The notes under the pieces are model-generated. The model saw only the letters and a list, made by a program, of their open reading frames with translations, had not been told where the DNA came from and ran no database searches. Positions 21,162-32,148 of a stretch of 64,000 nucleotides of DNA are shown piece after piece. The translations under genes and the position numbers were made by a program. The stretch's first letter is position 1, and the number at the start of each line of letters is the position of its first letter. Source of the stretch: an uncultured Spirochaetota bacterium (GTDB lineage: Bacteria; Spirochaetota; Brevinematia; Brevinematales; JAOACQ01); contig CAWIGG010000004.1 in assembly GCA_963835575.1 (NCBI GenBank), forward strand, positions 160,001 through 224,000, given 5' to 3'.

Positions 21162-21440
21162 ACGTTTTTTTGATTATTCCGCTCTAAATATGAATACCCT
21201 TTCTTAAATTAATTTTATAACTCACCTCAAAATAAGCTCTTGGTATTTATTGACAATTTCAATTAATTATATTAAATTTGTCTGAAAACAAATGAATCAA
21301 CCCGATTTGAGTGATGTTTTATTGACTATAAACAATTTTATCTTTTTTTGGCTTTGAATCATAAGGAAATGAATTTAAATAAGGCTTTCAACAGCTTTAT
21401 GGGTCTCACATAATTTTATTATGTGCCCAGGAGGCCTGAA

Positions 21441-24400
21441 ATGAAAAAGAAAACTAATCCTGCTCATATAAATGATAAAAAGAAGAATAATATTGCCCTT
21501 GAAAACGCCGAACTGCGAAGAAAATTGAAGGAATCCGAAGAGAAACTGAATTCCATCATCGGGTCTCAAAACGACGCTATTCTTATCTATGATCTTGAGC
21601 TGAACGCCGTTCAGGCAAACCCTTCTTTTATTAAAACATACGGCTTCAACCCCGCCGGTTTAAATTTGAAGGATATCATCAAAAAAGTCAATTGCCGCCG
21701 TCTCGACGGCAAGCCTTTAAAACCGGATGAACAGCCGGCGCCTCAAGCCCTTCGCGGCAAAAAAGTCAAAAGCGCTGTCATTCTGGTGAGTAAGGCCGAC
21801 GGTTCTGAGGCCGTTGTGGAGTCTTCCACCGGCCCCCTGAGGAAAGGAAAATTACTAACAGGCTCCGTAACGATCTGGCATGATATTACCGGCCAGATGA
21901 AGGCCCGGGAAGAATTTCATAAGACAAACAGAACGCTTAAAGCCCTCAGCCGCTCAAGCCAGGCCATCATGCGCGCGGCGGATGAAATGTCATATATGAA
22001 GGATGTCTGCAGGATTATTGTGGAAGACTGCGGCCATGCGATGGTATGGATCGGTTTTTCCGGGAATGATGAAGACAAGACTGTCCGGCCTGTCGCTTAT
22101 GCGGGTTTTGAGAAAGGTTATCTTGAAACACTTCATATCACATGGGCGGACACTGAGCGCGGGCGCGGCCCTACCGGGACGGCCATCCGCACAGGAAATA
22201 TTTGCATGTGCAGAAATATGCTGACCGATCCCGAATTTGAGCCCTGGCGCGAAGAGGCAATAAAGCGGGGTTATGCCTCCTCGATCGTTTTACCCCTGTT
22301 CGAAAACAAGAAAACTTTCGGGGCGATAAACATCTATTCAAGGGACCCTGACCCGTTCTCGGCGGATGAAGTCAGTCTTTTGAGTGAATTGGCCGGAGAC
22401 CTTTCTTACGGAATTATGACAATAAGACTGCGTGAAGCGCATGCAAATGCTGAAGAAGCCCTGATGCAGAGCGAGGAGAAATTCAGGCTTATCGCCATGA
22501 ATACGCCGGACCATATCCTGATACAGGATGCTGATCTCCGCTATACAATGGTCATAAATCCTCAATTGGGTCTGACTGAAAAGAATATGATCGGAAAGAC
22601 GGATTTTGAAATTCTTTCAAAAGAGGACGCGATTAATCTCACAAAAATAAAGGAAAGGGTCCTAGAAACCGGAAACCCTGAATCTATAAATATTCCGCTT
22701 GTTAATGATAAAGGAGAAGCGGAATATTTTGAAGGATCTTATGTTCCGAAACGTAATCCGCTGGGCCGGATTGACGGGATATTGGGGTATTTCAGAAATT
22801 TGACAGAACGTAAAAAAATGGAAGAGGCGCTGCGGGAAAACGAGAAGCGCTACCGGTCGCTCTTTAACAGTATGACCGAGGGATTTGCCCTGCATGAGAT
22901 TGTCTGCGACGGACAGGGTATTCCATGCGATTACCGCTTCCTTGAAATAAATCCGGCTTTTGAGCGTTTGACAGGGCTTAACCGCAGGAATGTGACAGGC
23001 AGACGTTTGAGCGAAGTAATGCCCGATGAAGATCCGAAATGGGTCGAAATCTATGGAAATGTCGCCCTGACGGGCAATCCGGTCCATTTCGAGAATTATT
23101 CGCCCGTTCTGAAGAAACACTTAGAGGTCTATTCCTACAGGCCTTCCCCGGGACAATTCGCGGCGATTTTCATAGATATCACCGAACGCAAGCTGGCCGA
23201 GGAATCCCTGCGCCGGACCCGCGACTTTCTGGAAAAACTGATCAATTACGCCAACGCGCCGATCATCTGCTGGGACACTCAATTCAATATTACGATATTT
23301 AACCATGCCTTTGAGCATCTATCTCACTATAAAGCCATTGAAGTTGTCGGGGAGAATTTAAGCATTCTTTTTCCTGATGAAAGCCGTGAGGAATCGTTAT
23401 CAAAAATCATGCGCACACTCAGCGGCGAACACTGGGAAGGGGTTGAAATTCCCATCCTCCGAAAGGACGGGGAAACACGAATTGTATTATGGAACACGGC
23501 CAATATATACTCTGAAGACGGAAAGACGCTGGTCGCCACCATCGCGCAGGGGCAGGATATAAGCGAACGCAAGCATTCCGAGGCGATGATGTCCTATCTG
23601 GCGTCCTTTCCGGAATTAAATCCCAATCCAATTACTGAAGTGAGCATAGAGGGAAAAACGCATTACATCAATCCTGTCGCTGAAAAGCTATTACCTAATC
23701 TCAAGACGCAGGGAATCAAGCACCCATGGCTTGACGGACTGGGAAGTATTACAGAATATCTGTTGAAAAGGAAGACGGGGTTATTCGTCCGGACAGTCGG
23801 AATAAAAGACACCTGGTACCAGCAGACATTCCACTATCTCGAAAGCGACCGGCGGATCCGCATCTATGGGATCGATGTTACAAAGCGCGTTCTTGCCCAG
23901 AAAGAGCTTCAAACCGCCAAGGACGCGGCGGAAGCGGCCGACAGGTCAAAATCCAGCTTTCTGGCCAATATGAGCCATGAGCTCCGTACGCCCCTCAACG
24001 CCATCCTGGGATACTCCCAGGTCCTGAGTAATGAAAGCAACTTGCCGGAAACGCATAAAAAAGATATCGAAGCCATAAGGCGGAGCGGCGAACATCTTCT
24101 GCGTATGATCAATAACCTCCTGGATTTTTCCAAGATAGAAGCCGGAAAGATGGAAGTGAAGAACCAATCATTTCATTTCCAGAATTTTATCAATTCCATT
24201 ATCGAACTTATTGAAATACAGGCAAAGGAAAAACATCTCGATTTCATTTTTGAGGCGTCATCGGCGCTTCCGGTTTTGGTTTCAGGAGATGAAGTCTGCC
24301 TGAGCCAGGTCCTGCTCAATCTGCTCTCAAATGCCGTCAAATTTACCGATAAAGGAAGCGTGACCCTTCACTTAAAGAATTATCAGAAGATCATGAATGA

Positions 24401-24956
24401 TAATAATATGCCGAAACATAAAATCCGTTTTGAAATTGCGGATACAGGCATCGGCATCCCGTCAGAGCAATTAGGTTCTGTTTTTGAACCTTTCAGACAG
24501 CTGAAGGACCGCAAAATTAAGGCAAAAGGAACTGGTCTTGGCCTTACAATCAGCCGGCAGCTGGTACGGATGATGGGCAGCGAACTTTATGTCCAGAGTA
24601 AATACGGGGAAGGGAGTATTTTCTGGTTTGATCTGGTTTTCGACAGTAATGAAACGGCTGACCAGGATATTAAAACTATAAGTCAAATGAAAAAAGCGGC
24701 GTCAGGCGCTGAAGAAAAGCAGGCTAAAATTATCCCACCTTCAGCAGAAGAGCTATCAGCTTTGCTTGATTTGGCTAACACAGGCAATATTATGGGAATA
24801 AGGAAATGGACAGAAAAAACGGATTCAGGCAGTAAAAAATACCTTGCTTTTACAGAAAAGATCAGGCAAATGGCGAGAGATATAAAACTGGAAGAAATAA
24901 GGCTCTTTATCAGGCAATATTCAGGAGGAAAAAATGAAACCAGATCAGTACCATGA
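21441..24956 (+). CDS. Cytoplasmic PAS-GAF-multiPAS histidine kinase
   Basis: FLANMSHELRTPLN H-box; NLLSNAVKFT, DTGIGI and GTGLGL boxes. Confidence 0.92.
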   Translation: MKKKTNPAHINDKKKNNIALENAELRRKLKESEEKLNSIIGSQNDAILIYDLELNAVQANPSFIKTYGFNPAGLNLKDIIKKVNCRRLDGKPLKPDEQPAPQALRGKKVKSAVILVSKADGSEAVVESSTGPLRKGKLLTGSVTIWHDITGQMKAREEFHKTNRTLKALSRSSQAIMRAADEMSYMKDVCRIIVEDCGHAMVWIGFSGNDEDKTVRPVAYAGFEKGYLETLHITWADTERGRGPTGTAIRTGNICMCRNMLTDPEFEPWREEAIKRGYASSIVLPLFENKKTFGAINIYSRDPDPFSADEVSLLSELAGDLSYGIMTIRLREAHANAEEALMQSEEKFRLIAMNTPDHILIQDADLRYTMVINPQLGLTEKNMIGKTDFEILSKEDAINLTKIKERVLETGNPESINIPLVNDKGEAEYFEGSYVPKRNPLGRIDGILGYFRNLTERKKMEEALRENEKRYRSLFNSMTEGFALHEIVCDGQGIPCDYRFLEINPAFERLTGLNRRNVTGRRLSEVMPDEDPKWVEIYGNVALTGNPVHFENYSPVLKKHLEVYSYRPSPGQFAAIFIDITERKLAEESLRRTRDFLEKLINYANAPIICWDTQFNITIFNHAFEHLSHYKAIEVVGENLSILFPDESREESLSKIMRTLSGEHWEGVEIPILRKDGETRIVLWNTANIYSEDGKTLVATIAQGQDISERKHSEAMMSYLASFPELNPNPITEVSIEGKTHYINPVAEKLLPNLKTQGIKHPWLDGLGSITEYLLKRKTGLFVRTVGIKDTWYQQTFHYLESDRRIRIYGIDVTKRVLAQKELQTAKDAAEAADRSKSSFLANMSHELRTPLNAILGYSQVLSNESNLPETHKKDIEAIRRSGEHLLRMINNLLDFSKIEAGKMEVKNQSFHFQNFINSIIELIEIQAKEKHLDFIFEASSALPVLVSGDEVCLSQVLLNLLSNAVKFTDKGSVTLHLKNYQKIMNDNNMPKHKIRFEIADTGIGIPSEQLGSVFEPFRQLKDRKIKAKGTGLGLTISRQLVRMMGSELYVQSKYGEGSIFWFDLVFDSNETADQDIKTISQMKKAASGAEEKQAKIIPPSAEELSALLDLANTGNIMGIRKWTEKTDSGSKKYLAFTEKIRQMARDIKLEEIRLFIRQYSGGKNETRSVP

Positions 24957-26055
24957 AACAAAAATCCTGATCGTCGACGATGATCCGGACAATCTCAATA
25001 TTTTACTGGATCTTCTCGACAAATCCCATTTCAAAACCCTGGCGGCGACCGACGGCGAAAGCGCCATCGAACAGATTGTCAATTCCGAACCCGATCTGAT
25101 CCTTCTGGACGTCATGATGCCCGGGATTGACGGGTTTGAGACCTGCCGTGTCTTGAAAAAAAACAACGCGACAAAAAATATTCCGGTTATTTTCATGACC
25201 GCTCTTTCAGATACAGTTGATAAGGTTAAAGGGTTCGCGGCGGGCGGCGTGGATTATATAACCAAGCCCTTTCAGTTCGAAGAGGTGCTGGCGCGGGTCA
25301 ACGCGCACCTGACGATACAAAGGCTCCAGAAACAGCTCCAGCAGCAGAAAAAACAGCTGGAGGAACTCAATGCCAGCAAGGACATGTTTTTTTCAATACT
25401 GGCCCATGACCTGAAGAGCCCGATGGTCGTGTTTTTATCCTACGCGAACCTTCTGGACAAAATCGACAGCATGAAAAAAAGCGAATTTAAAGTCTTTACG
25501 ACCAAACTGCAGGATACGGCCGGGAATTTATTCGCCCTGCTTGAAAACCTTCTGACCTGGTCCACCGTCCAGCATGGCCTGATCGAGTATGCCCCCATAC
25601 AAATGAATATCAGCTCCGTTATCGATGAAAACATCAAATTGATGACCCCAAAAGCTTCGCAGAAGTATGTCCAGTTTAATAATCTTGTCCAGGAGGAAAT
25701 CCAGGTATTCGCCGATAAAAATATGCTGAGTACCATTATCAGGAACCTGCTGTCAAACGCCGTCAAGTTTTCACATCCCGGAGGAACTGTTAAAGTATCC
25801 GCGGTTCCGGATGATGACAGTGTCCAGATATGCGTTTCCGACGAAGGGGTCGGCATCGATAAAAAAAACCTTTCGAATCTTTTCAGGATTGATGTCAGGA
25901 CAAAACAGCCCGGCACCGCCGATGAGAAGGGGACAGGGCTGGGCCTGATACTCTGCAGGGAATTCGCGGAAAAGATGGGCGGAAGCATCGAGGTGGAAAG
26001 CGAGGAATTGAAAGGCACGACGGTCCGTTTCAGCATCCCCGTATCCGGGAAATAA
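24934..26055 (+). CDS. Hybrid response regulator/histidine kinase (REC-HisKA-HATPase)
   Basis: ILIVDD, LLDVMMP, ITKPF; AHDLKSP; GTGLGL. Confidence 0.92.
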   Translation: MKPDQYHETKILIVDDDPDNLNILLDLLDKSHFKTLAATDGESAIEQIVNSEPDLILLDVMMPGIDGFETCRVLKKNNATKNIPVIFMTALSDTVDKVKGFAAGGVDYITKPFQFEEVLARVNAHLTIQRLQKQLQQQKKQLEELNASKDMFFSILAHDLKSPMVVFLSYANLLDKIDSMKKSEFKVFTTKLQDTAGNLFALLENLLTWSTVQHGLIEYAPIQMNISSVIDENIKLMTPKASQKYVQFNNLVQEEIQVFADKNMLSTIIRNLLSNAVKFSHPGGTVKVSAVPDDDSVQICVSDEGVGIDKKNLSNLFRIDVRTKQPGTADEKGTGLGLILCREFAEKMGGSIEVESEELKGTTVRFSIPVSGK

Positions 26056-26070
26056 CCGCTGAAAAACGGT

Positions 26071-26190
26071 AATCCGCTAATGCACGCGAATAAACGCAAA
26101 TGCCTCACCCCACCTCGCAAGGCTCGGCACCCCTCTCCAAATTTGGAGAGGGTACGGGGGTGAGGCATTCGCGCGGCTTCGCGGAAGATT
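26071..26190. repeat. Family A repeat carrying a nested CCTCACCCC...CCCTCTCC..GGAGAGGG..GGGGTGAGG hairpin
   Basis: Read directly from the sequence. Confidence 0.8.
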
Positions 26191-26220
26191 GGTTAAGTCT
26201 TCGTATTCAATTTTATTTTT

Positions 26221-27033
26221 CTATTCATTATTGACTTCATGGAAAACCAGGACTATTCCCTTGCCGGTCATATTGCTATCCTCATCCATAATAGGAGAAA
26301 TATTAAAATTAACAAATATTTCCACGCCTTTTTTGTTGACAAGAAGGCAGTTTTTATAATTCTTAACGCAGAACCCTTCGTCCTTAATCTTTGAAACAGG
26401 ATTTTCCAGCGGGATATGTTTCTTACCGTTCAGAATGTAAAATACTTCCGAAAGAGGGCTTCCACCGGCATCTCTTGATTTAAAGCCGGTATAGGCTTCG
26501 GCGACAGGATTGATAAAAGTCACCATACCATCGAAATCGGCTGTGATGACTCCTTCGCCAATGCTGTTCAATATACTGTAAAAGCTGTCCCTGCTTTCCT
26601 TCAATTCCTTATTTTGTTTTCTTATCCGCAGCGCCATATCTTTGTTTATTCTTTTCAAATCAAGAAACGCCAGAGCCTGATCGATTGTAACCAACAGCTC
26701 CTGATCATTCCATGGTTTTGTCAGATAGCGGTAAATTTCGCCTTCATTGATGGCTTCTATGGTGGCCTTGATATCGGAATAGCCGGTCAGAAGCATGCGG
26801 ATTGTGTCCGGATAATACCGTCTGACCTGTTTTAAGAATTCAGTGCCGGGCAGATCCGGCATCATCAGATCGGAAATGATGATATCCATATCCTCTTTTT
26901 TTAAAAGGGAAAAACCGTCTTTTGTGTTCTGAGCCGAATAGATTTCCGGATCATGCCTGTCCCTGAAAACTTCTTTAAAATAGCTGAGAACATCCGTGTC
27001 ATCATCGACTATCAGTAACTTGTGGTCGCTCAT
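26221..27033 (-). CDS. Response regulator, REC plus PAS, with no output domain
   Basis: LLIVDD, ISDLMMP, YRYLTKPW; PAS SIGEGVITAD. Confidence 0.85.
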   Translation of the reverse strand: MSDHKLLIVDDDTDVLSYFKEVFRDRHDPEIYSAQNTKDGFSLLKKEDMDIIISDLMMPDLPGTEFLKQVRRYYPDTIRMLLTGYSDIKATIEAINEGEIYRYLTKPWNDQELLVTIDQALAFLDLKRINKDMALRIRKQNKELKESRDSFYSILNSIGEGVITADFDGMVTFINPVAEAYTGFKSRDAGGSPLSEVFYILNGKKHIPLENPVSKIKDEGFCVKNYKNCLLVNKKGVEIFVNFNISPIMDEDSNMTGKGIVLVFHEVNNE

Positions 27034-27294
27034 GATTTTTCCTCCTGTTAATAAAAAATAATGCCCGCCATGATACAACCCCCTGCCGTACTATCCTCCG
27101 CTAATTACTCCCATGATAAACTGCCGTTTAAATAAAAAGTAATATTATATTGCCGGAAAGTCAATACAATTATAAAAAAATGATTGGATCAGCATTGAGT
27201 ATTTCTTTTTTTCTTTGAAAATTAATGCTATATTGTTTATAATTAAATGCATAGTAGAGACGCACGGCTATGCGTCTCTACTTTGGAGGAATTT

Positions 27295-28776
27295 ATGAAA
27301 AAAATAACCGTTCTATTCCCCATTATTTTTATATTGGTTTTATTATTCTCCTGCGGCAGCACGGCAAGCGCCGTAAAGCAGGACCCCTCGCCCCAGGTTT
27401 CTTCCGGCCAGCCTTCCTGGGTCGGTACTTCTAAAAAAGATAAGGATTATTTTTACGCCGTGGGCTATGTTGAGGATACGGCGGGCCTGGATGATGTCAA
27501 AGCGAAAGCCTTCCAGAACGCCAAAGGACAGATCGCCAACAATATTTTTGAGGAAACATCCGTTGAAAAGGTTTTTACCGCTTCGGGCGGGCTTTCCGAT
27601 AATGAAGAACTGAAAAAAGGGTACCAGGAAAAAGTCAGAAGCGAGAGCGCCGTGAATCTTTCCGGCGTGGAAATCGAGGATGTCTATTCCGAAAAAACCG
27701 AGGATTCAGGCTTGACGGTGTATAAAGTATGGGTCCTGGCGAAAATATCCTATAAAAACCTGGAAAAGGAAAGGAACCGCGTTATAACCGAACTGCAGAG
27801 AAAGCTCGCTCTTGTGGATAATAATATCAAAGCGGCCCAGGGTTTTACTAATGGCGGCAGGATAATTGACGCCGTCAACGCCTATATAACAGCAGCTGTC
27901 AGTTCTACAAAAGTTAAAGAAAGGACCGACGAATTCCCCATTTATGTCAGTAAAGCGGAAAAACTCCTGGAAGGCATTATAATAGAAGCTCAGGATAATC
28001 CCTCCTCAATCGACACGGTTAAAGGCGGGGTTTTCGGTTTTAAAGTCACTTATGCCTCGCCGTCCGGTAAAATCCCCTTAAGCGGAGCTAAAATCAATTT
28101 TGTGATTAAAAATAATGACGGCGAATATGAAAAGAGCGGGGTTTCCGCTACGAACGGAGTTGTCGAGTGCCGGATAAAAAAGCTTAAAGAAGTAAAAAGC
28201 GATAACCGTTTATACGCGGTTTTTTCCTTCGATTTTCCCGATATTTTAGATCTTGGGAAGGAGTACCAGAAATATTATTCATCCCTTAAAGACAGCGAAG
28301 AGAAAATCAGCGTCTATACCGAATTTAAAACTATTTCCCGGGAAAACAGGAATATTCCCACAACGGTGATCGCCATGATCGCCGGGGAAAACGGGCTGAA
28401 AAATATCCCGGGCCTCTCTGCCGAAGCACAATCCTACCTGATCGACAGGGGTTATAAAGTGGTCAAATTTTCCGGCAGCCTGCCGCTGGAAGACATTGCC
28501 GAGGTCAAGCAGAGCGCGCTGGAAGAGCTGGCCTCAAAAGGGATCAAGCGCGTATTTATTCTCTCCGTGGCATCCCAGGCTAGCCCCAAATACAACCAGG
28601 AGCTGGACAGGTATCTGGGCGTATATTCCGTTTCCGCCCAGCTTGTCGACACGTCGAGCGGTGAGATCATTTCTTCGAAAAATATAAAAGTCAGCGCGAC
28701 CGCTCAGACAGAAAGCGGCGTGTTCGACTCCTTCATCAAAGCGGCCGGCAATCAGATTAAAAACCTGATCGAATAA
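27295..28776 (+). CDS. LPP20-like lipoprotein
   Basis: Lipobox LFS-C; PSWV...YFYAVG. Confidence 0.75.
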   Translation: MKKITVLFPIIFILVLLFSCGSTASAVKQDPSPQVSSGQPSWVGTSKKDKDYFYAVGYVEDTAGLDDVKAKAFQNAKGQIANNIFEETSVEKVFTASGGLSDNEELKKGYQEKVRSESAVNLSGVEIEDVYSEKTEDSGLTVYKVWVLAKISYKNLEKERNRVITELQRKLALVDNNIKAAQGFTNGGRIIDAVNAYITAAVSSTKVKERTDEFPIYVSKAEKLLEGIIIEAQDNPSSIDTVKGGVFGFKVTYASPSGKIPLSGAKINFVIKNNDGEYEKSGVSATNGVVECRIKKLKEVKSDNRLYAVFSFDFPDILDLGKEYQKYYSSLKDSEEKISVYTEFKTISRENRNIPTTVIAMIAGENGLKNIPGLSAEAQSYLIDRGYKVVKFSGSLPLEDIAEVKQSALEELASKGIKRVFILSVASQASPKYNQELDRYLGVYSVSAQLVDTSSGEIISSKNIKVSATAQTESGVFDSFIKAAGNQIKNLIE

Positions 28777-28782
28777 AGCAGA

Positions 28783-31700
28783 ATGGGTTTTATAAATTTT
28801 CACAGCCACAGCGAATATTCTTTTCTTGCGTCTCTTTTAAAAATCGATGAAATTGTCCAATTTTCCCTCTCCGGCGGTTTTGAGGGGTGCGCCGTTACGG
28901 ACACTCTTTCAACATACGGCTTTATAGAACTGTCCCGGACATGTCTTAAGAATAAAATTAAGCCGGTATTCGGCTGCGAGCTTTTTATAAAAGGGTCCGG
29001 TGGAAAGGGCCATTACCCGGTCCTTCTCATAGCCCTGGACAGACGCGGTCTGGAAAATATTTATCTGCTGAACAGCTTCGCCCACAAGCTTTACCTGAGC
29101 GAACACATTTATACATTACCGCAGGAAGTCCTTTTCTCTCATTATGAAGGACTGGCCGTACTGGCCGAATCAGAAATCTACTTTAACAGGAAAAATAAAA
29201 CAAGGGCACTAAAAATTGTTTCGCTCTATCAGGATGTTTTCAAGGAAAACTTTTTTGTCGAAGTGAATTATACCGGCGAAAAAAAAGTCCCTCTGCTCAA
29301 GGAAATAGTGGATCTGATCGAGGCCAACCGTTTCCCGGCATTGGCGGCATGCGAAGCCCGGTATTCCCGGTATGACGGCGATGCCTTTCCGGCACTGAAC
29401 GCTTACAGGGAAAAAAAAGAAGCGGGTAATGAAAAGGGCCTCCCTCTCGATACCGGATTCGATTTCTCTTTGAAAACAAAAGATGATTTCAGCCATTATT
29501 TTAAAAATCACCCGCAATATCTGGCCAACGCGGAAAGCCTCTTTGCCAGGATCGAGGACAATATCATTAAAAAAAGCTTCCCCGTGCCTCATTATATTAA
29601 AAGCCTGTCGAGGCTCAGAAAAATCTGCGAAAGAAAATTAAACGCTTATTGTTCCGATTCATTATACAGGATCAGGCTGGAAGAGGAACTCGGAATTATT
29701 GAGAAGGAAGGCATCTCTGATTATTTTATTTTCGCTTATGACATCGCCTGTTTTATCAAGATCAATAAGATCCCTTACGGGTTCGGGAAAGGCTCTCTTC
29801 CGTCGTCCCTTGTTTTATTCCTTCTGGGGCTGACAAAAATAGATCCGGTCGAACATGGGCTCCTTTTTGAGCTTTTTGTCCCGCCCGGTCTGCCCTTTTC
29901 GTATGAAATTGAACTGGATATATCCAGGAAAAAGAAAGGCGCGGTCTTTTCATATGTCCATTCAAAATTCGGAAAGAAAAATGTGTCATTTCTTTCGGTG
30001 ATAGACCGCTGGACAATCCGCTCGGCATTCCGGGCGGTCTCGAAATACAGCAGACTGGACAGGGATTCCGCAAAAATCCTTTCCTCATTTTTTAACAGGA
30101 GTAATTTTTCCATTGAAGAGGAATTAAATGCCGATTCGCGTTTTGCATTTCTCTATAATGAAAATAAAGAATTAAAAGAATGTTCGGACACGGTCCGCCG
30201 CCTGGACGGGAAAGCCTGTCAGAACCAGGTCCAATCGGACTGTTTTACCGTAATCCCTGGAGGTCTTGAAAAACAGGCCTCGCTGGATTACAATGCCGGA
30301 GGGGAACCATTTGCCGAATTAACCCGCGACGACGGTAGAATCAGCCCATTCCTCCGCGTTGTTTTAAATTCAAACCGCTCGGTCGCGATTATTGAAGAAA
30401 CAATGAGAACGGCAAAATTAAAAGACATAAATTATAATGACGGAGAAACCTATCTTTTATTAAGCGAAGGCAGAACAGCCGGCATCTTTACGCTGGAAAG
30501 CCCCGGCATCCGTGAATTTATAAAAAAAGCGCAGATAGATTCACTCTCATGCCTGTGCGATATTATCACCCTGTATAGAAAAGACCCCCTGACGCTTGGC
30601 ACGGCTTCAGATTATATTACCAGGAGAATCAACAACCTGAACTATGGGAAAGTCTCTCCGAAAGCCCATGAGACAAATCCGATCACATGGGAAACCTACG
30701 GTCTCATCCTGTATGAGGAGCAGGTTTTAAGGATTATCCATGAAGCGGCGGGGGTTGAACTGGATAAATCCATCCTGTTTCTCCAGGCGCTCCTTAAAAA
30801 AAACAACCCGGCGGTCCTTTCTTTTAAAAAGCAATTCATAAAGGGCTGCGTTCAAAACGGCAGCGATAAGGAATTCGCTCAAAGGCTTTTCGGTATTCTT
30901 CTCGAAGTCGGAAGGTGGGCCGTTAAGAAGTCCCATACTCTCAATTATGCTTACCTTGCCTATGCCGGGGCGTACCTGAAAACCCATCATCCCCTTGAAT
31001 TTTATCTTTCATACCTGAACAATAATCTCGACCTGTCTGAAAATTTAAATAAGATTATTATGGACATCCGCTTTTATTCCTGGAACATTAATATTCTTCC
31101 CATAAATATCAATAAAAGCAGATGCCTGTTTTCACTGGAAAACGGGAATATCAGGGCCGGACTTTATCTCATCAATCATTTAGGGCAGGAAACAGCGAGA
31201 AATATTGTCAGGGAAAGAAATAAGAATGGGATGTTCAAGGATATGCTTGATTTTACGCTCAGGATGTCATCATTCGATCTGCATGAAAAAGCCCTGGAAA
31301 ATCTCATCAAGGCCGGCGCTTTTTCTGAATCAGACCGCAGCGTATCAGAACTGCTTTCCACGGCGCATTCCGTATATAAATTCGCCCGGAAAGAAGAAAA
31401 GGACGAGGAAAACAGCCTCTTCGAACGGGGCGAACAGATCCCGGACCTGGAATACTTTATCAGGAAAAATCCGCCGGCGGACATGCCGGTCAATTCCATG
31501 GATGAATTTGAGGCCACGGATGTCTTCCTTACCCATGATCCTCTGGACAGGGTTAAAGACGTGCTCGGCCGGTACAGCGTGGACGAAACCGATCAGATGC
31601 AGAACCTGGAAAAAGGTACCTTTATCGCCTATCTGTTTCAGCTCAGGGCCGCGCGCAGCCGCCGGGGCGGAATGACGGCATCCGCACAGATATGCGACAG

Positions 31701-31860
31701 AAAAGGCATTGCCCGGGCCGTATTTTTCCCTTCGGTCTATCAGCGGTATTCTTCCATCCTGCAGAACCATACAATATACCTGATGAAGGGAAAAATAAAT
31801 AATAACCAGTTGATTGTCGAACAGATATTCCTCTTTGACGAGCTGATTAAAAACGGATGA
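28783..31860 (+). CDS. DNA polymerase III alpha (DnaE) paralog with degenerate active site
   Basis: PHP HSHSEYS, GIFTLES, TYGLILYEEQV, KSH..YA, OB fold; catalytic motifs altered. Confidence 0.85.
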   Translation: MGFINFHSHSEYSFLASLLKIDEIVQFSLSGGFEGCAVTDTLSTYGFIELSRTCLKNKIKPVFGCELFIKGSGGKGHYPVLLIALDRRGLENIYLLNSFAHKLYLSEHIYTLPQEVLFSHYEGLAVLAESEIYFNRKNKTRALKIVSLYQDVFKENFFVEVNYTGEKKVPLLKEIVDLIEANRFPALAACEARYSRYDGDAFPALNAYREKKEAGNEKGLPLDTGFDFSLKTKDDFSHYFKNHPQYLANAESLFARIEDNIIKKSFPVPHYIKSLSRLRKICERKLNAYCSDSLYRIRLEEELGIIEKEGISDYFIFAYDIACFIKINKIPYGFGKGSLPSSLVLFLLGLTKIDPVEHGLLFELFVPPGLPFSYEIELDISRKKKGAVFSYVHSKFGKKNVSFLSVIDRWTIRSAFRAVSKYSRLDRDSAKILSSFFNRSNFSIEEELNADSRFAFLYNENKELKECSDTVRRLDGKACQNQVQSDCFTVIPGGLEKQASLDYNAGGEPFAELTRDDGRISPFLRVVLNSNRSVAIIEETMRTAKLKDINYNDGETYLLLSEGRTAGIFTLESPGIREFIKKAQIDSLSCLCDIITLYRKDPLTLGTASDYITRRINNLNYGKVSPKAHETNPITWETYGLILYEEQVLRIIHEAAGVELDKSILFLQALLKKNNPAVLSFKKQFIKGCVQNGSDKEFAQRLFGILLEVGRWAVKKSHTLNYAYLAYAGAYLKTHHPLEFYLSYLNNNLDLSENLNKIIMDIRFYSWNINILPININKSRCLFSLENGNIRAGLYLINHLGQETARNIVRERNKNGMFKDMLDFTLRMSSFDLHEKALENLIKAGAFSESDRSVSELLSTAHSVYKFARKEEKDEENSLFERGEQIPDLEYFIRKNPPADMPVNSMDEFEATDVFLTHDPLDRVKDVLGRYSVDETDQMQNLEKGTFIAYLFQLRAARSRRGGMTASAQICDRKGIARAVFFPSVYQRYSSILQNHTIYLMKGKINNNQLIVEQIFLFDELIKNG

Positions 31861-31861
31861 A

Positions 31862-32062
31862 GCCGTCATTGCGAGCATCCGACTTTATACTCTGCCGAAT
31901 ATTTTAAAGCGAAGCAATGGTTCGACAAGTTCACCACGGCGTCTGTCAGCTTTTAATACAGACTTGCCCTGAGCTTGCCGAAGGGTTGCTTCGCGCGATA
32001 TTCAGCGGCTAAATGAAAACAGGGTGCTCACAATAGCCTGCCCTGAGCTTGCGAAGGGACGG
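31862..32062. repeat. Family B repeat with three ~23-bp insertions
   Basis: Alignment by eye with 16433-16581. Confidence 0.75.
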
Positions 32063-32148
32063 TCTTAGTTTTTCATTAAACCTTCAATAATAACAACTTT
32101 TACAATCGGAACTCCGTAACTTACTGAAAAATAAGCGGTAAGAAAATA

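Follow-up and report, generated by a model that had tools for sequence, protein, structure and literature searches.

A DnaE-family pseudo-polymerase, relaxed but maintained, and its catalytically intact orthologues in the spirochaete order Brevinematales

The gene described here lies in a stretch of 64,000 nucleotides, hereafter the window, from the genome of an uncultured Spirochaetota bacterium of the order Brevinematales (assembly GCA_963835575.1, contig CAWIGG010000004.1, positions 160,001 to 224,000, forward strand). It specifies a protein with the layout of the DnaE-type replicative polymerases which is very probably inactive as a polymerase and maintained by selection. Comparison with its orthologues, some of which retain the complete catalytic site at the same locus, indicates an accessory polymerase family in which activity disappeared in one lineage after another. 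The gene and its parts, all on the plus strand, are as follows:

28783..31860, plus strand: DnaE-family pseudo-polymerase, 1025 amino acids, one uninterrupted open reading frame (ORF)
28783..29568, plus strand: PHP domain, residues 1-262; metal site degenerate throughout the family; N242-H243, Y163 and P79 family-specific and kept in active and dead members
29569..30378, plus strand: palm and thumb, residues 263-532; fold kept in the window copy, catalytic and substrate residues lost
29902..29919, plus strand: YEIELD replacing PDFDVD; E375 (29905) for D401 and E377 (29911) for D403, in E. coli alpha numbering
30361..30363, plus strand: V527 replacing the third catalytic aspartate (E. coli D555), by alignment to E. 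coli alpha
30379..30990, plus strand: fingers, residues 533-736; L667/Q668 at the positions of R709/R710
30991..31392, plus strand: helix-hairpin-helix (HhH), beta-binding domain, residues 737-870; best-conserved part among dead members
31408..31422, plus strand: ENSLF, putative clamp motif, aligned to the internal clamp-binding motif 920-924 of E. coli; LF invariant
31573..31842, plus strand: oligonucleotide-binding (OB) fold, residues 931-1020; the protein ends there, with no tau-binding domain

An earlier note on this DNA, made from the sequence alone, had described an uninterrupted frame with the DnaE layout, and on this the ORF calls, the Pfam matches (PHP, DNA_pol3_alpha, finger and HHH_6, with a weak match to OB) and the structural model agree. 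Structure prediction of the protein alone, which the same note had suggested, was carried out with AlphaFold2 (predicted local distance difference test score, pLDDT, 87.6; 19-row alignment) and gave a fold like that of Pol III alpha, with template modelling (TM) scores of 0.75-0.86 against Pol III alpha structures. Both the PHP-Pol3-(HhH)2-OB architecture and the fold of the C-family DnaE type are present in the 1025-residue protein.

The catalytic motifs are erased, as had been claimed, alignment to E. coli alpha placing E, E and V at the triad. The aspartates D401, D403 and D555 are called "absolutely conserved" among C-family polymerases in a survey that admitted intact-site sequences only (PMC3919608), and the window protein has E375, E377 and V527 in their place. 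Relative to E. coli alpha it further carries R362>K, R390>L, R396>L, H511>Q, K553>R, R709>L, R710>Q and N757>K, and 5 of 16 scored site residues are retained, the 16 being our own choice, with the triad numbered after PMC3919608. As controls, the triad is intact in all 135 non-family DnaE matches of the representative library, and all three aspartates are present in 27/27 DnaE1 proteins of the class. The loss of PHP metal ligands had been counted as part of the same erasure. These changes are real, but catalytically intact orthologues carry them too and they do not belong to the erasure of the active site; PHP-ligand loss was accordingly rejected as a mark of death.

A genuine dnaE had been expected elsewhere in the genome, and an intact DnaE1 is encoded on contig C2. 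In this genome (94% complete) there are exactly two polymerase-domain matches, the second of which (C2:912891-916379) is a 1162 amino acid DnaE1 with polymerase and PHP motifs intact and 27% identity to the window protein. No PolC scored over cut-off in the genome at that completeness, and the co-occurrence with PolC that serves as a criterion for DnaE3 was not found.

Profile searches revealed an orthologue in 22 of the 35 genomes of the order, which includes Thermospira aquatica; its member (WP_271435646.1, from a single-contig genome) bears the NCBI label 'PHP domain-containing protein'. None was found by these searches in G009 (57% complete) or in the 12 genomes of family f6. The family is small, making up 15 of the best 150 matches (the top 14 plus one) among 1.84 billion representatives. 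The full site (PDxDxD, GRGS, HxGG, KxD) occurs in ten genomes (G005, G007, G008, G010, G011, G012, G015, G019, G022 and G025) and is lost in twelve (G000 to G004, G006, G013, G017, G014, G018, G021 and G024), to which the representative library adds four active and six dead proteins. In a set of 29 proteins, from which G019, G024 and G025 were left out as partial or frameshifted, the 12 active members keep 16/16 site residues and the 17 dead ones 0-9; as members were classed as active or dead by the triad itself, independent evidence comes only from the remaining 13 residues. Retention of the triad by close orthologues had been named as evidence against a pseudo-polymerase. It is indeed seen in 10 of the 22 genomes, among them G008, whose orthologue is 45.5% identical to the window protein and keeps all three aspartates, but all five members of the window gene's genus are dead, and for the window gene the idea was not refuted.

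The active members likewise end after the OB fold and carry a degenerate PHP site, which argues that their common ancestor had neither PHP proofreading nor a tau-binding domain. Among dead members the damage is graded: the thumb of 78 residues has shrunk to 20-39 in four congeners, while the Thermospira forms (781-787 amino acids) have lost most of the palm and retain PHP, HhH, LF and OB. In the model of the Thermospira form only PHP, OB and the distal fingers/HhH are predicted with confidence, and its best matches are still DnaE structures.

Three further DnaE-like sequences were encountered. The active-type orthologue of G025 (L048:7910-10964) is split by a frameshift into frames of 729 and 387 amino acids, through either an assembly error or recent pseudogene formation. 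In G029, a 1.3-kb contig carries a DnaE fragment of 445 amino acids that is no closer to one paralogue than to the other and was left out of the counts. In the sister order, f7, all eight genomes matched a very degenerate DnaE remnant of about 820 amino acids (L151-L158, e.g. G036:C68:105963-108425), which is open in the seven whole copies, gave a dN/dS (ratio of nonsynonymous to synonymous substitution rates) of 0.09 in one pair and showed no LF motif. It directly follows genes which we take to be rplW and rplB.

Selection was studied with a pairwise codon model of our own (GY94, F3x4), in which synonymous divergence (dS) above about 5 was not interpreted. Six dead pairs (dS 0.74-4.2) gave dN/dS values of 0.150, 0.113, 0.096, 0.186, 0.111 and 0.078. 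The other four were saturated in dS, including both with the window genome (dS 9.9 and 14.3), since no close strain was found; a metagenome scan with the window protein confirmed 0 of 261 pattern matches. A dN/dS of 1 was rejected in all ten dead pairs (2dlnL 216-504), and the clean active pairs gave 0.032, 0.054 and 0.038. By region, palm plus thumb was always the highest in dead pairs (0.13-0.27) as against 0.026-0.035 in active pairs; the G015-G025 pair was left out of the C-terminal part, where the frameshift in G025 produces an artefactual value of 1.2. When the window frame was evolved neutrally in simulation, it stayed free of stops in 2 of 500 runs at 0.05 changes per site and in none of 500 at 0.1. 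In one DNA sequencing run, three short pieces were identical to the gene, with no variants. The dead gene is relaxed but clearly maintained, and the selection that had been read from its open frame is borne out by the dead pairs, whose dN/dS is not near 1.

What is conserved was analyzed by counting near-invariant columns, defined as those alike in at least 14 of 17 dead or at least 10 of 11 active members. Dead and active members differ most in palm plus thumb (1.5% vs 29%) and fingers (2% vs 31%), less in PHP (10% vs 23%) and the HhH region (16% vs 22%), and hardly in the linker (10% vs 12%) and OB fold (8% vs 6%). The earlier note had remarked that a clamp-like ENSLF and the OB fold remain. 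L879-F880, aligned to E. coli 923-924, is present in 17/17 dead members and in 11/11 active members reaching the motif, 24-36 residues past the HhH anchor in an otherwise variable linker modelled as disordered; in the flanking columns 860-878 and 881-886 at most 10 of the 17 dead members are alike. Thus, of a QL[S/D]LF-type motif, the position and the LF are kept in 28/28 and the consensus Q is absent; many DnaE3 and DnaE2 proteins also keep only the LF positions (PMC3919608). By cryo-electron microscopy the E. coli clamp is contacted by the 920-924 motif and by OB elements 1003-1013 and 1035-1043, R877 faces the DNA, and the tau-binding domain comprises 1079-1160 (PMC4703070). Equivalents of the clamp-contacting OB residues and of R877 persist in the dead members: Y986 in 17/17, G962 in 14/17 and K836 (as K or R) in 16/17.

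The gene stands behind that of a lipoprotein, and two further features, both on the plus strand, precede it:

27295..28776, plus strand: exported lipoprotein of about 493 amino acids, lipobox LLFSC; GGAGG at 27285-27289; the longest ORF starts at 27247
27215..27243, plus strand: sigma-70-type promoter-like site TTGAAA-17-TATAAT, 11/12 matches, ahead of the lipoprotein-pseudopolymerase gene pair

The 6-bp gap between the two genes had been given correctly. The lipoprotein gene is directly upstream of the family gene in 20 of the 21 loci with upstream DNA, the gap ranging from -1 to 6 nucleotides; in G003 it is deleted to its last codons and the pseudo-polymerase gene is kept. The lipoprotein has no Pfam match; among its look-alikes in the Atlas are clusters in which 17% and 90% of the members carry LPP20. 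It is also found in 8/8 genomes of the sister order, with no DnaE-like gene beside it in the four loci read. An obligate link between the two products was rejected, as the lipoprotein is exported, is lost in G003 and occurs in the sister order without a DnaE neighbour in the four loci read. A distant paralogue of the lipoprotein exists in most genomes (G000:C2:851428-852090), and both are missing in 12/12 f6 genomes. The promoter-like site ties for the best score among 14 sites, where chance alone would give 8.1; by eye, several relatives have TGnTAT-type extended -10 look-alikes upstream. The locus is fixed among housekeeping genes, the G+C content of the gene is like that of its neighbours, and no mobile or defence neighbours occur in the window. 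Between TPR/203-aa genes and the lipoprotein gene, window positions 21423-27078 hold a PAS/GAF histidine kinase gene and two response-regulator genes, an insert absent from congeners. The intergenic region 31860-32075 contains short palindromic repeat-like units, with GCCCTGAGCTTG occurring twice; some of its 18-mers are found 2-3 times in the genome, and similar pieces in unrelated contigs.

The number of losses was approached through trees built with LG+G4, with no mixture model. In the DnaE1 tree (28 genomes) the dead state needs three changes among 20 labelled rows, and a single clade of dead-copy genomes is rejected by the approximately unbiased (AU) test (p-AU 1e-5). The lipoprotein tree has the same three dead groups (genus g1 with G006; g7; the Thermospira genus) and again rejects one clade (p-AU 3e-5). 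The fixed position of the locus argues for vertical inheritance and, if the locus was inherited vertically, the polymerase site would have been lost at least three times.

As to origin, the active members form their own clade (100/100), outside the DnaE2-like cluster (99/99) and the DnaE1 cluster (98/98) and next to other library DnaEs. Grouping the family with the DnaE1 of its own order is rejected (p-AU 0.007). The family falls outside the DnaE2 clade in two trees (13-14 DnaE2-like references), although the AU test, with seven of these, does not reject their union (p 0.084); the PRK05672 score of the window protein is far below cut-off (252 of 939 bits). The family is best called an unassigned accessory DnaE, possibly basal to DnaE2. 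Other spirochetes have second DnaEs of about 1000 amino acids with intact aspartates (L131-L140), several of them beside a Y-family polymerase (PolY) gene; nine group with DnaE2.

From these sequence comparisons, there is an even chance that the protein serves as a non-catalytic scaffold docking on clamp and DNA, which would hold or hand off clamp-loaded DNA. The ancestor of the order would have carried a second, accessory DnaE behind the lipoprotein gene, already devoid of PHP proofreading and of the tau-binding tail. Besides synthesizing DNA, this ancestral protein may have had a non-catalytic job in its outer parts, and it is presumably that job which selection now keeps; such a second role is the simplest account of repeated loss with retention. 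The present protein might dock on the beta sliding clamp by means of its xxxLF motif and contacts of the OB fold, touch duplex DNA with its little finger (HhH) and present its PHP surface to a partner. Binding of deoxynucleoside triphosphates (dNTPs) and primer extension would be impossible and a tau tether would be lacking. On DNA already loaded with the clamp, as at stalled forks, gaps or primer ends, it could keep the place or serve as a scaffold for hand-off, leaving the chemistry to DnaE1 or to a repair or other enzyme. For the window protein itself, we infer expression, inactivity, binding of clamp and DNA, a partner and a pathway. A link to DnaX (tau), which the earlier note had raised, is unlikely because the tau-binding domain is absent.

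Several observations weigh against repeated loss and a kept clamp-docking role. The family's own tree, computed with the catalytic core removed, does not reject a single dead clade (p-AU 0.082); in it the dead members are scattered and long branches meet. The consensus Q of the clamp motif is missing (E876), as it is from the genome's own DnaE1, and clamp binding may therefore be weak. In some dead lineages the HhH glycine and several of the basic residues that face DNA have disappeared, and the equivalent of F1031 has gone from 7/17 dead members. Dead pairs are relaxed outside the palm as well (dN/dS 0.06-0.21 vs 0.03-0.08 in two clean active pairs), and since even palm plus thumb stays at 0.13-0.27, much of the constraint may be for folding only. 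The f7 remnant has no LF and, should it be an orthologue of the family, the clamp motif would not be the core function. The absence of the gene from all twelve f6 genomes searched implies that its job is dispensable.

An entrenched structural subunit, in which a partner binds the PHP face or the whole fold and clamp binding is incidental, is an unlikely account of the same data. The family-specific PHP residues N242-H243, Y163 and P79 are kept in active and dead members alike, H243 in 22/22; K60-P61 match K63-P64 of the epsilon-binding surface of E. coli (PMC3919608), and in the alignment N242 takes the position of D252, which is close to the epsilon linker (PMC3664792). K63 and P64 are, however, common to most DnaE proteins (110 and 131 of 135) and thus not specific, and an invariant LF in a disordered linker is left unexplained. 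Nor does any epsilon-like protein track the family gene, the order-wide DEDDh domain being located inside RecJ and shared by f6, where the gene is missing. PF00929 was matched in a long frame in 34/35 genomes of the order and in 0/8 of the sister order. At G000:C4:836832-839093 (minus strand, locus L179) the match belongs to a 753 amino acid protein with an inserted DEDDh/DnaQ-like exonuclease domain, which we take to be RecJ-like from its DHH motif; the next gene is presumably holB.

An ImuB-like mutasome scaffold, recruiting DinB or UmuC, both of the Y family of polymerases, to the clamp, is improbable. A dead polymerase scaffold has a precedent in ImuA-ImuB-DnaE2 (PMC12926913), and a second, UmuC-type PolY is found in 7/8 dead-copy genomes outside Thermospira as against 1/10 active-copy genomes, but this co-occurrence rests on two lineages. 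In the Thermospira genus all four genomes, of which two are single-contig, carry a dead copy but gave no match to PolY; the window genome has neither a UmuC-type gene nor the cassette, LexA scored over cut-off in none of the order's 35 genomes, and in 22 loci the family gene adjoins no imuA, imuB or PolY gene. The lack of imuA/imuB neighbours that had been noted at the window locus therefore stands. SOS control of the window gene was rejected, LexA not having been found. A cassette of UmuC-type PolY and a umuD-like peptidase S24 gene, mostly with SRAP, is carried at loci L080-L087 by G001-G006, G013 and G017 and not by the window genome.

Slow decay of a dispensable gene, transcribed by read-through from the lipoprotein gene and constrained by folding only, is doubtful to a slightly greater degree. 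It would fit the rates in dead pairs, which are 2.5-4 times those of DnaE1, the accumulation of in-frame thumb and palm deletions, the loss of the gene in f6 and the lack of an obvious ribosome-binding site of its own (by eye). Against it stand the 16 of 17 dead proteins that are long open frames of 781-1049 amino acids (the 17th being a 750 amino acid library fragment), a dS in the dead copies well beyond the divergence at which a neutral frame is broken, the domain-specific constraint, and G003, where the gene outlived its upstream neighbour.

Residual enzymatic activity, whether weak polymerization through E375/E377/D379 or a new PHP-based activity, is less credible again. Acidic residues do stand at 375, 377 and 379, E377 in 5/5 congeners, and H7, H9, D40, E66, E191 and R193 remain on the PHP face. 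The third aspartate and the dNTP-binding arginines are gone, however, congeners have G, S or T at the first aspartate, and in the Thermospira form the palm core is missing, as are H7, D40, E191 and R193. The decoy for phage or plasmid inhibitors of the replisome, another idea of the earlier note, gains a little from the kept outer surfaces of a replicase and from evolution faster than that of DnaE1, and is very unlikely given the fixed housekeeping locus without mobile or defence genes in the window, neighbour-like G+C, gaps in its distribution that come only from loss in an entire family, the lack of any hint of dN/dS above 1 and only 27% identity to the DnaE1 it should mimic.

Returning to the clamp-docking scaffold, we would suggest tentatively, and with the balance of probability against it, that DnaE-type polymerases in general have a separable function of this kind (PHP, HhH, clamp motif, OB) which can keep a 3-kb gene after catalysis is lost, exposed at least three times in this order and perhaps again in the sister order. 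If this is true, dead DnaEs would form a class of replisome or repair subunits in bacteria that has been overlooked because surveys filter for intact sites. One orthologous locus offers a natural series, from fully active through dead but whole (the window gene) and thumb-deleted to palm-deleted (Thermospira aquatica), which makes testable the roles of DnaE besides synthesis and the reason why some bacteria keep a second DnaE. It also illustrates that the annotations 'DNA polymerase III alpha' and 'PHP domain protein' can hide pseudoenzymes.

In the literature searched, with subscription journals mostly outside its coverage, no natural dead C-family polymerase was found. The available part of PMC12926913 reports dead polymerases in the Y and X families and no such group in the C family, strongly diverged sequences having been discarded before its trees were built. 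One of its supplementary files contains no Thermospira or Brevinema; dead C-family polymerases may be listed in its further supplements or in those of PMC3919608.

Compared with known systems, the window protein shares with DnaE1/Pol III alpha of E. coli, T. aquaticus and M. tuberculosis (5fku, 2hpi, 7pu7) the order PHP-palm-thumb-fingers-HhH-clamp motif-OB, at a TM score of up to 0.86, and differs in lacking the catalytic aspartates and the tau-binding domain, a clade with the order's own DnaE1 being rejected. In eukaryotic Pol epsilon, the inactive C-terminal polymerase module of Pol2 is a dead fold kept as a replisome scaffold; that module is of the B family, fused to an active polymerase and essential, whereas the window protein is stand-alone and its gene family is lost in f6. 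With DnaE2 and 'DnaEX' (PMC3919608, PMC12926913) it has in common the status of a second copy, a degenerate PHP site, the missing C-terminal domain and a clamp motif reduced to LF; it is distinguished by having no imuA/imuB/PolY neighbour and no LexA, and the available parts of these papers describe the polymerase site of DnaE2 and 'DnaEX' as intact. ImuB, an inactive Y-family protein, and PolX with an inactivated site are likewise non-catalytic polymerase folds, the former with a clamp motif (PMC12926913). These belong to other polymerase families, while here the PHP site is dead as well as the polymerase site, no gene for a partner polymerase is linked, and the same locus holds active orthologues in other genomes. 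The pseudo-polymerase is of a known kind, here in the C family, and what is new at this locus is the survival of active orthologues together with a graded series of loss.

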